In this document: positions 4,017 through 18,264 of the stretch, in pieces
Layout of the letters: every line of letters starts with the position of its first letter
Numbering within the stretch: the first letter of the stretch is position 1
NCBI GenBank assembly: GCA_947499635.1
Contig: CANMPD010000012.1
Span: 35,857-99,856, forward strand
DNA: 64,000 nt
From: an uncultured Rhodobacteraceae bacterium
GTDB taxonomy: Bacteria > Pseudomonadota > Alphaproteobacteria > Rhodobacterales > Rhodobacteraceae
Direction of reading: 5' to 3'
Notes under the pieces: generated by a model
Seen by the model: only the letters and a program-made list of their open reading frames with translations
Database searches by the model: none
What the model was told of the DNA's origin: nothing
Made by a program: the position numbers and the translations under genes

Positions 4017-4664
4017 TTAAGTGCCCATGATCCAAGAAATTGACTCACGCACTTCATCGATTGACGCCAATCCATCCAACCGTTGAAGATTGCCTTTGGC
4101 GTAATAATACCCAATCAAAGGCGAAGTCTTCTTATAATATTCGTTGAGACGGGTTTTAAGGCTTTCCGCATTGTCGTCAGGACGACGCTTCACCTGCGTA
4201 GAACCGCAATTGATGCATTCACCGCTTTCAGGCCAAGGCTTGGTTTCGTCGTGGTATACTTCACCACATTGACCACAGGTTGAGCGACCAGAGACGCGTG
4301 CGACCAGCGCTTCGTCATCTACTTGCATCTCGATAACCGCGTCGAGCTTCATATCCATATCGGACAGGAGCTTTGCGAGAGCATCAGCCTGCGGCAGAGT
4401 GCGTGGAAATCCATCAAAGATGAACCCACCCTCTGCACCATCCTGCAACTTCTCGCGGATCAGACCGATAACGATCTGGTCCGTAACAAGCTTGCCCTCG
4501 GCCATGATAGCCGCGACTTTTTTGCCCATCTCGGTTCCAGCGGCTTGCGCATCGCGCAACATGTCACCAGTTGACAGCTGAACCATCTGCTTGGTGTCGA
4601 CCAAATAACGCGCCTGCGTTCCTTTGCCGGCACCGGGTGGGCCTAAAAGAATAATGTTTCTCAT
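4017..4664 (-). CDS. adk: adenylate kinase (Cys4 zinc-lid type)
   Basis: [19 protein letters not shown]-loop. The lid has CGQCG...CINCG (four Cys). Overlaps the secY stop. Confidence 0.95.
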
Positions 4665-6031
4665 CGACGCGCAGGTCCTCGTTTCGTGCGTTTCTTACTA
4701 CGGCCGCGCAACTGGCTTTTCTCAATTAAGCCTTCGTATTGATGCGCCAGCAGGTGGCTTTGAATTTGTTGGATTGTATCCATGGTCACGGATACAACGA
4801 TCAGAACGGATGTCCCGCCAAAATAAACAGGGAAGGCAAATTGGCCGCGCAGAACTTCTGGCAGTAAGCACACAATGGCCAGATAACCAGACCCCAATAC
4901 GAGAATACGGTTAACAACATATTCAATGTATTCTTCGGTTTTCTTACCCGGGCGAATGCCTGGAACAAAACCATTCTGATTTTTCAGGTTCTGCGCCACA
5001 TCTTCAGGCTTGAAAGCGACATTAAACGTATAGAAATACGCAAAGAACACAATCATCGCGATGAAAAACAGCAGATACAGCGGCTGACCGGGACCAAAGT
5101 TTGCAAGCATCCAAGACATAATCGGATTGGTTGCAGATCCAGTGTTAAAGGTCGAAATCGTAGTGGGCAGCAGCAAAAGCGATGACGCAAAGATTGCAGG
5201 AATCACGCCGGCTGGGTTCACCTTAATTGGCAAATGGCTAGAGCCACCGTCGTAGACCTTCATCCCGACCTGACGGCGCGGGTATTGTATGTGTATCTTG
5301 CGCAGTGCTCGTTCCATAAACACGACGAACATAATGACGCCGATCGTCATTGCGATCACCGCGATAATCACACCGGGAGAAATCGCGCCAGAACGACCAG
5401 AGGCAAAGAACTGTGCCAATGCAGCGGGAACTTCGGCAACGATGCCCACAAAGATGATCAAAGAGATGCCGTTACCAATGCCACGCTGTGTGATTTGCTC
5501 ACCCAGCCACATCAGGAACATCGTACCGCCAACCAATGTAATCATACACGCGGCGATAAAAAACCAAGGCGCTTGATCGCCTGCGACCATATCTCCGCTC
5601 AACAAACCAGCAGACAGGCCATAGGACTGGGCAGTTGCCAAGGCAACTGTTCCATAGCGGGTATATTGGTTTATCTTTTTGCGGCCTTGTTCACCTTCTT
5701 TTTTCAACTGTTCCAGCGCAGGGACCATGGAGGTCAGCAGCTGCACAATAATCGAAGCTGAAATATAAGGCATAATCCCGAGGGCAAAGATGCCCATACG
5801 GCCCAGTGCGCCACCAGTGAACAACGACACCATGCCGCCGATCCCCTGCCCTGCACTTTCCATGAACTCACGCAATGCATTTGCATCGATGCCGGGCACT
5901 GGAATAAATGTGCCGAGGCGATACACGATCAATAGAACGATCGTGAATAGGATGCGATTGCGCAGATCCGTGGCCTTGCCGAGCGCCGCCCAGCTGGTGT
6001 TGGCCGCCATTTGTTCTGCTGCTGATACCAT
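4661..6031 (-). CDS. secY: preprotein translocase subunit SecY
   Basis: 456 aa and multi-TM. Conserved position rplO-secY-adk. Confidence 0.95.
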
Positions 6032-7114: not shown

Positions 7115-7195
7115 AAAAAACAAAACGCCCCTGCCGGGAGGAGGTGGCAGAGGCGTTTAAAAAATTACCAGACTAGGGAGGAGGACGCCTGGCAA
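7115..7195 (-). ncRNA. ccsR: CcsR/cuckoo-type sRNA (two hairpins with CCUCCUCCC loops)
   Basis: Hairpin 1: CCAGGC-GUCCUCCUCCCUA-GUCUGG (7168-7192). Hairpin 2: ACGCCUCUGCC-ACCUCCUCCC-GGCAGGGGCGU (7124-7157), followed by UUUUGUUUUUU. It begins about 25 nt after the stop of a DUF1127 gene, as at the ccaF1-ccsR locus. Confidence 0.7.
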
Positions 7196-7217
7196 TTCTA
7201 TTCTAATTCAGATGTAT

Positions 7218-7430
7218 TTATGCGCCGTAAACGTGCTGGCGCGCCAAGTCAGAGATCTGTGCGCGTGAAATACCGATGTCGGCCAGTTCACGGCTGTCCA
7301 GTGAGGCCAGCTCTTCGTAGGTACGTTGGTATTCTTGGTAACGTGCCCAGCTTACCTGCACAGCGTCATAGGCAGCACGCAAGCGAGAAGTCAGAGAAAC
7401 GTTCGCGGAATATGTAAATGCTTGTGCCAT
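7218..7430 (-). CDS. DUF1127 small protein (CcaF1-like)
   Basis: 70 aa. The C-terminal ELASLDSRELADIGISRAQISDLAR matches the DUF1127 signature (LsDreLaDIGisR). Confidence 0.85.
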   Translation of the reverse strand: MAQAFTYSANVSLTSRLRAAYDAVQVSWARYQEYQRTYEELASLDSRELADIGISRAQISDLARQHVYGA

Positions 7431-7495
7431 CTTAGGTCCTTTCTTAGCTGAAACGGTTTTTTCAGCTCTGTGTGTATGTCATTGCTTACGACCTA

Positions 7496-7524
7496 TAGAT
7501 AGCCGCTTATGGTGGCGCTAACAA
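7496..7524 (-). promoter_or_regulatory. candidate promoter of the DUF1127-sRNA unit
   Basis: Minus strand reads TTGTTA (7519-7524), 17 nt, TATCTA (7496-7501). The predicted 5' UTR contains a perfect 8-bp hairpin AGCTGAAA/TTTCAGCT (7446-7467) just before the RBS. Confidence 0.3.
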
Positions 7525-18101: not shown

Positions 18102-18264
18102 GCTTTCTGTCTTCCGTTTAGCTACGATGAGTTTCCCCATCGATGCCGAACCTTAGGTAATATGCCTCTGGCCCGGCTATGTGAAAGCCCCCTGCCTTGC
18201 CGCAAAACGACCGGTTCAGGTGACCGAGTTATAGGGCCCCGAAGGTCCCAGAATTAGATATCCT

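Follow-up and report, generated by a model that had tools for sequence, protein, structure and literature searches.

Cuckoo RNAs are small RNAs of alphaproteobacteria (Rhodobacteraceae or Rhizobiales; PMC4615179) that consist of two to four adjacent hairpins, each with CCUCCUCCC in its loop (Reinkensmeier and Giegerich, 2015; PMC4615179). Cuckoo RNAs encoded beside DUF1127 genes make up the CIN1 group, which comprises the CcsR RNAs and several members of the ar14 family (Gruetzner et al., 2021; PMC8034643), and cuckoo RNAs are included in ar14 (PMC8034643). In Rhodobacteraceae, adjacency to a DUF1127 gene, with the RNA oriented as its 3' UTR, is the signature of CIN1/CcsR loci (PMC4615179; PMC8034643), and this 3'-UTR arrangement is the predominant one there (PMC8034643). 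Further traits of these loci are a DUF1127 protein of the CcaF1 group (OG1), an RpoHI/RpoHII-dependent promoter, co-transcription of RNA and ORF, and induction by stress (PMC4615179; PMC8034643); the usual flank is a benzoate transporter gene (OG18), which is typical, not obligatory (PMC4615179). In Rhodobacter sphaeroides, RNase E processes CcsR from the ccaF1 3' UTR at AU/U-rich sites, and CcaF1, a protein of 27 amino acids, the DUF1127 domain and 11 further amino acids, binds the CcsR RNAs and modulates their maturation (PMC8034643). The anti-Shine-Dalgarno (anti-SD) loops of NfeR1, an ar14 RNA (RF02344) of Sinorhizobium meliloti, block translation initiation regions (PMC10746234).

Here we describe a locus of this kind in a 64-kb stretch of DNA from an uncultured Rhodobacteraceae bacterium (hereinafter, the window). 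It is probable that the window encodes a single two-hairpin sRNA of the cuckoo/CcsR type, located in the 3' UTR of a DUF1127 gene of the CcaF1-like type, and that this RNA is processed from the mRNA and exerts an anti-SD action.

Two hairpins with anti-SD loops

Hairpin 1 occupies positions 7161..7199 of the minus strand and consists of a 12-13 bp stem and a 13-nt loop; its core, CCAGGC(GUCCUCCUCCCUA)GUCUGG (loop in brackets), lies at 7192-7168 and can be extended to 7199-7161, and the anti-SD nonamer is found inside the loop at 7184-7176. Hairpin 2, ACGCCUCUGCC(ACCUCCUCCC)GGCAGGGGCGU, lies on the same strand at 7156-7125 with 11 standard pairs out of 11; its G+C-rich stem extends to 13 bp (7158-7123), and its 10-nt loop, ACCUCCUCCC, carries the nonamer at 7144-7136. 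The U-tract UUUGUUUUUU follows at 7124-7115 and, on the basis of fold and sequence, hairpin 2 with this tract (7115..7158, minus strand) is the intrinsic terminator of the DUF1127-sRNA unit; other terminators in these genomes have stems of the same ACGCC...GGCGUUUU type. Both loops, located 3' of the DUF1127 ORF on the minus strand, display CCUCCUCCC. The loop of hairpin 2 together with its closing bases reads CACCUCCU, presumably the same as the 3' tail of 16S rRNA.

At the DNA level, CCTCCTCCC occurs only twice in the window on either strand (0.33 copies expected), namely in the two hairpin loops, 40 nt apart; two or more copies anywhere in the window were present in 4 of 100 shuffles. The region folds with a minimum free energy (MFE) of -39.5 kcal/mol (z = -4.8), and none of 200 shuffled sequences folds as well; within the boundaries set for the sRNA, the two-hairpin shape is the MFE structure at -37.9 kcal/mol. 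The spacer between the DUF1127 stop codon and the hairpin 1 core is 25 nt long (7217-7193) and 72% A+U, in a window of 52% G+C, and its unpaired AU-rich part (7200..7217, minus strand) is, from sequence and fold, a candidate site of RNase E processing. A preliminary description of this DNA had reported two consecutive minus-strand hairpins some 25 nt past the stop codon of a 70-aa DUF1127 ORF, and the sequence confirms them: hairpin 1 lies exactly where it had been placed (7168-7192), both loops carry the exact nonamer, and folding bears out the two-hairpin structure. Hairpin 2 has the reported structure, but the interval given for it (7157-7124) takes in one base too many at either end.

Membership in the cuckoo family

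A thermodynamic matcher provided the original definition of the cuckoo family (PMC4615179), and each general rule of that definition was checked on the element. There are two hairpins with the exact nonamer in both loops; the hairpins are 39 and 36 nt long (24-50 nt required), the motif-bearing loops 13 and 10 nt (9-27 nt), the helices 12-13 bp (at least 6 bp) and the linker 2 nt (at most 10 nt), and E(shape)/E(MFE), with both energies at -37.9 kcal/mol, is 1.0 (at least 0.85). The host belongs to Rhodobacteraceae, within the range of the family, and hairpin 1 follows the end of the DUF1127 ORF, which is on the same strand, at a distance of 25 nt, as in the CIN1 adjacency. Judged by the definition of the family itself, the element qualifies as a cuckoo RNA with two hairpins (HP2). 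A benzoate transporter gene is not among its flanks, which are an alpha/beta-hydrolase gene and rpmD on one side and rplO on the other.

A gathering-mode Rfam scan of the whole window gave no match at the position of the sRNA and returned only an L2 leader. In e-value mode (1-kb search), the sole significant match was RF02344 (ar14), with 55.6 bits and E 3.5e-9, which is below the gathering score of 58.8 bits, so that the Rfam threshold is not reached. The alignment runs over the full length of the model (positions 1-123) with the 5' hairpin (27 model positions) deleted, and the score narrowly misses the threshold since three hairpins are expected by the model. The preliminary description had proposed a search with Rfam models of the CcsR/cuckoo family; ar14 was the only one to match significantly, but Rfam contains no dedicated CcsR model. 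The CcsR/cuckoo-type identity that it had put forward is supported by the matcher rules and the ar14 match as well as by the conservation and covariation considered below.

Among named systems, the locus resembles CcsR1-4/CcaF1 (RSP_6037) of Rhodobacter (Cereibacter) sphaeroides in having two hairpins with CCUCCUCCC in both loops, located in the 3' UTR of a gene for a DUF1127 protein of about 70 aa with the same layout (27 aa, the domain and 11 aa), in having a TTG-N19-CTATNT promoter and an intrinsic terminator at the end, and in its Rhodobacteraceae host. In contrast to the cluster of four RNAs at that locus, the window has a single copy, and, unlike CcsR/CIN1 loci adjoining a benzoate transporter gene, this copy lies between rpmD and rplO. 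With ar14 RNAs such as NfeR1, the element shares the loop motif and the stem-loop modules, and the action to be expected by analogy with NfeR1 would be anti-SD pairing at translation initiation regions; the 5' hairpin of the three-hairpin ar14 RNAs is, however, missing here, and NfeR1, unlike the sRNA of the window, has its own promoter and is located upstream of its DUF1127 gene.

A scan of metagenomes for two nonamers 20-45 nt apart returned 120 loci, with a DUF1127 gene at 4. One metagenome contig (L200; L numbers denote the loci compared here) encodes a canonical cluster on its reverse strand (approximately 4347-4970), in which a gene for a 71-aa DUF1127 protein is followed by five two-hairpin cuckoo RNAs with ten CCUCCUCCC loops altogether, adjoining mrp/apbC, mraZ and rsmH. 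Rhizobiales-type short DUF1127 genes with three-motif RNAs are present in L111 and L198.

The DUF1127 gene and its transcription unit

The DUF1127 gene (7218..7430, minus strand) encodes a 70-aa protein that matches Pfam PF06568 over residues 28-59 (E 1.8e-13). With about 27 N-terminal amino acids, the DUF1127 domain and about 11 C-terminal amino acids ending in HVYGA, the protein shares the architecture of CcaF1 and, judged by this layout, is probably CcaF1-like; it shows only 34% identity (pairwise E 5e-12) to the 71-aa CcaF1-like protein of the L200 cluster. A protein word search with the DUF1127 protein of the window retrieved only itself and one relative, 87% identical, which led to three sister contigs (L081-L083). 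These are short metagenome-assembled contigs of a close relative, with the same order of rpmD, hydrolase gene, DUF1127 gene, sRNA and rplO.

Upstream of the ORF, a promoter-like element is located at 7497..7524 on the minus strand (TTG at 7524-7522, N19, CTATCT at 7502-7497), with transcription predicted to start near 7488 and to yield a 5' UTR of 58 nt. The pattern TTG-N19-CTATNT recurs about 70 nt before the ATG in at least 14 orthologous loci of other genera, and the window and L081 share 92.7% identity over the promoter block. The R. sphaeroides RpoHI/HII logos have TTG at -36 to -34, A-12 and T-9 (PMC3441632), and the alpha-proteobacterial RpoD signature is N17-CTATAT (PMC10746234); TTG-N19-CTATCT matches both equally well. 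A firm assignment to RpoH was rejected: the RpoD signature and the housekeeping rplO promoter (TTG-N19-CTATAC) share this layout and, accordingly, the sigma factor is not assignable from sequence. Just past the -35 TTG, positions 7521-7510 (minus strand) form a conserved, partly palindromic stretch that reads GTTAGCGCCACC in the window; its fullest form is GTTAGCGCTAAC, and equivalents are found in L001, L012, L015, L018, L027 and L057. The palindromic GTTAGCGCTAAC/GTTAGCGCCACC stretch may be the operator for a regulator.

The 5' UTR contains a predicted hairpin, AGCUGAAA(AAACCG)UUUCAGCU, at 7446..7467 (minus strand), about 5 nt upstream of the Shine-Dalgarno sequence AAGGA (7441-7437). At least 15 orthologous 5' UTRs have a hairpin at the matching place, with differing stems and AAUNNG-like loops; the stem covaries across genera, and an A-to-G change in L081 preserves pairing.

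An alternative account of the unit, which we regard as unlikely, is that the RNA is an ar14/NfeR1-like sRNA transcribed independently from its own promoter in or just after the DUF1127 ORF, without processing. Such RpoD-type promoters are indeed present at NfeR1 and other Rhizobiales ar14 members (PMC10746234), and a weak TTGGCG-N19-CATAAA sequence is found near the end of the ORF in the window. However, this sequence loses its TTG in L081 and was rejected as an sRNA-specific promoter; moreover, the promoter upstream of the ORF is conserved in all orthologous loci, and the 3'-UTR arrangement predominates in Rhodobacteraceae (PMC8034643). Given that comparison of the window with L081 revealed no conserved promoter in the ORF-sRNA interval or at the 3' end of the ORF, a single transcript that covers both the ORF and the sRNA and ends at hairpin 2 is most likely.

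Conservation and covariation in related loci

The ribosomal protein L15 encoded in the window is 89-91% identical to those of Phaeobacter and Leisingera, and the best 80 related loci all come from Rhodobacteraceae. In the comparison with the close relative (L081), the sRNA is identical at 83 of 85 positions (97.6%), the DUF1127 ORF shows 85% nucleotide identity with 20 of the 32 differences at third codon positions, and the 100 nt after the U-tract are only 44% identical; the sRNA is the best-conserved stretch of the locus. One of the two differences in the sRNA converts a G-U to an A-U pair in hairpin 1 and the other falls in the U-tract; the loops are invariant in the face of 15% divergence of the ORF.

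Hairpin 1 came out misaligned when the distant 3' UTRs were aligned with MAFFT, and a covariance model built from the element was therefore used to search the window and 83 loci. One strong match was obtained in the window, and there were matches 3' of the orthologous DUF1127 genes in a Phaeobacter sp. metagenome-assembled genome (L001; 47.9 bits), Parasedimentitalea (L024; 35.7 bits), L015 (33.2 bits) and two Leisingera loci (L048 and L039; two genes each, 22-32 bits). The top Rfam match at the equivalent position in L001, L024, L039 and L048 is also ar14. In the distant loci, hairpin 1 retains a UCCUCCUCCCU-like loop on a rewritten stem: in an alignment fitted to the model, 12 of the 13 pairs are changed on both sides and 95% of the cells are paired, a result obtained in none of 500 shuffles.

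The preliminary description had made its case depend on conservation of the loops in orthologous loci. For hairpin 1 this holds, its motif being conserved in at least four named genera, but in the terminator loop the motif does not extend beyond the closest relatives, namely the window, L081-L083 and, one base off (GCUCCUCCCU), L001. In Leisingera, Parasedimentitalea and others, the motif is found in hairpin 1 only, and in Ruegeria and Shimia the orthologous DUF1127 gene is followed by a plain terminator without an anti-SD hairpin. The two-motif form is lineage-restricted. The one-motif loci (L039, L048, L056, L024 and L015, from Leisingera, Phaeobacter, Parasedimentitalea and unclassified Rhodobacteraceae) occupy the same gap and have the same promoter, the 5'-UTR hairpin and a hairpin 1 whose loop is CCUCCUCC(C), with a terminator after it; unlike the element of the window, they would fail the rule of a motif in each loop, given that their terminator loops lack it.

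These comparisons bear on the view that the two hairpins are nothing but a compound terminator or an mRNA-stabilising 3' structure, with C-rich loops that have no role in trans. The typical terminator form of hairpin 2, the plain terminators of the Ruegeria and Shimia orthologues and the absence of the terminator-loop motif beyond the nearest relatives are what such a view would lead one to expect. Nevertheless, we consider it quite improbable, given that the hairpin 1 nonamer is retained in at least four named genera on a rewritten stem, that neither loop differs between the window and L081 despite the divergence of the ORF, and that the exact nonamer, present twice, is the hallmark of the cuckoo family.

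The gap between rpmD and rplO

The locus lies in the gap between rpmD (8805-8617, minus strand) and rplO (6612-6139, minus strand), which also contains a gene for a 272-aa alpha/beta hydrolase similar to Peptidase_S9 and dienelactone hydrolases (8427-7609, minus strand). No homologue of the hydrolase was found in the 80 related rplO loci; it is present only in the sister contigs L081-L083 (290 aa there) and is a lineage-specific cargo of the gap, and the composition of the insert shows no anomaly that would mark a foreign origin. An intrinsic terminator, AAACGCCUCGG-UUUUA-CCGGGGCGUUUUUU, is located directly after rpmD (8593-8564, minus strand), and similar weak covariance-model matches are found after rpmD in many related loci. 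Given that rpmD has its own terminator, the spc-type cluster is split into two transcription units at this point.

The length of the rpmD-rplO gap in the 66 Rhodobacteraceae loci that showed both genes varies between 105 and 4163 bp (median 1352 bp) and is 320 bp or less in only 12. Between one and three DUF1127 genes, in every case with the orientation of the ribosomal-protein genes, are found in 17 of these gaps, and unrelated cargo is found in the gap in other genomes. Some Shimia and Pelagimonas gaps contain three tandem DUF1127 paralogues (L018 1167-2259, L027 1606-2703, L013 3274-4473), each with its own terminator in L018 and L027; the genes that were inspected at these loci lack an anti-SD hairpin. 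Between the sRNA terminator and the rplO promoter of the window, a block at 7030-6865 (minus strand) is approximately 72-75% identical to L081-L083, with flanks at about 40%; a near-direct repeat, AATCACACGGA(A)T(T/C)GGA, is present within the block, the end of which reads GGCGGCGCCGCC followed by ATTTTA. Beyond L081-L083, this block is absent from the other fetched loci, and it may represent either a remnant or a small transcript specific to this lineage.

Upstream of rplO, a conserved promoter-like element (CTTGAT at 6749-6744 and CTATAC at 6726-6721, minus strand) is followed by a leader of about 100 nt (6749-6613 of the window including the promoter, minus strand) that is conserved across Rhodobacteraceae and has no Rfam match. 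In the leader, the outer helix (GCCG/CGGC) is invariant and the inner one, of 6 bp, shows compensatory changes; a conserved loop sequence, CGCUUC, is complementary to GAAGCG between the Shine-Dalgarno sequence and the AUG, which suggests a pseudoknot or occlusion beside the Shine-Dalgarno sequence. The 3' part of the leader is present even where rpmD abuts rplO. It is a candidate for an undescribed ribosomal-protein leader. The L2 leader returned by the Rfam scan (L2-Alphaproteobacteria ribosomal-protein leader, RF03142) lies at 18104-18250 (minus strand); it reaches 44 bits (gathering score 37.8) and differs from the model by an insertion of 99 nt. Sub-threshold matches to RF00140 (Alpha operon ribosome-binding-site; 30-35 bits against a gathering score of 38) were seen in six related loci, approximately 2.8-4.2 kb downstream of the rplO start (L001 7898-7975, L039 and L048 7818-7897, and others).

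The location between rpmD and rplO, which the preliminary description had singled out as a notable address, is physically correct, but no special link to ribosomal-protein mRNAs came to light, and the address is best understood as a gap that separates two transcription units and tolerates insertions, rather than as evidence of a functional connection with these mRNAs. A local or cis action, in which leaky termination lets stress-driven transcription run into rplO-secY or the loops pair with the Shine-Dalgarno sequences of neighbouring ribosomal-protein genes, would explain the address and could draw on the co-oriented DUF1127 genes in 17 of the 66 sampled gaps, on the report that a DUF1127 gene of S. 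meliloti senses ribosome availability (PMC12218461) and on the initiation region of S11, with its G-rich Shine-Dalgarno sequence, which ranks third of 78 at -20.6 kcal/mol. We give this reading very little credence, given that rplO has its own conserved promoter and leader, also in insert-free genomes, that the gap varies from 105 to 4163 bp and holds unrelated cargo elsewhere, that canonical cuckoo clusters are found at other sites (beside a benzoate transporter gene, PMC4615179, and at mrp-mraZ in L200), and that duplex scoring of both loops against the 78 translation initiation regions of the window revealed no enrichment of ribosomal-protein genes among the best pairings and no convincing target.

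A broader proposal, which also appears improbable, is that the DUF1127 gene of the gap, together with its conserved promoter, its covarying 5'-UTR hairpin and, in some lineages, the anti-SD sRNA of the 3' UTR, serves the Roseobacter group as a dedicated module for translation status or stress and is functionally linked to the ribosomal-protein operons. If this were true, the module might tune the availability of ribosomes or Shine-Dalgarno sequences or feed regulated read-through into rplO-secY, and the series of loci with zero, one and two motifs would represent the way in which a plain terminator evolves into a cuckoo sRNA. A functional meaning of the address has found no positive support in this analysis, and the literature search produced no paper that combines DUF1127 with rplO or rpmD among the matches listed; the S. 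meliloti report keeps such a meaning alive at low probability.

Proposed mode of action

For the reading that we prefer, a cuckoo/CcsR-type sRNA that comes from the DUF1127 mRNA's 3' UTR, the observed features of the locus can be assembled with what is known of the family as follows. Transcription most likely starts at the conserved promoter at 7524-7497 and would produce one mRNA that extends across the hairpin-bearing 58-nt 5' UTR and the 70-aa ORF and stops at the hairpin 2 terminator. An sRNA of about 80-90 nt (roughly 7203-7115) would probably be released by endonucleolytic cleavage in the AU-rich spacer, the likely enzyme by analogy with Rhodobacter sphaeroides being RNase E, with the DUF1127 protein as a possible helper. 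Through its two exposed and redundant CCUCCUCCC loops, the sRNA would then base-pair with G-rich stretches that resemble Shine-Dalgarno sequences in the translation initiation regions of target mRNAs, which may block ribosome binding and alter mRNA stability. Co-transcription, processing, action in trans and stress induction are thus attributed to this RNA by analogy with its family; in CcsR, processing is a published observation, and for the window both processing and stress induction are expectations drawn from the relatives.

Implications

The element is a previously unannotated and otherwise ordinary member of the well-described cuckoo/CcsR family, and its peculiarities are modest: the single copy, the rpmD-rplO address and a terminator loop that acquired the motif. 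The known picture of how the family works is unchanged. The locus adds a regulatory RNA and a likely RNA-binding partner protein to the genome of a marine member of the Roseobacter group, and it illustrates that two-hairpin cuckoo RNAs are missed at the Rfam threshold for ar14. The rpmD-rplO interval, with DUF1127 genes in 17 of the 66 gaps, is a second site at which DUF1127/cuckoo modules recur, and the related loci with no, one or two anti-SD loops provide a natural series for the origin of 3'-UTR sRNAs from terminators.
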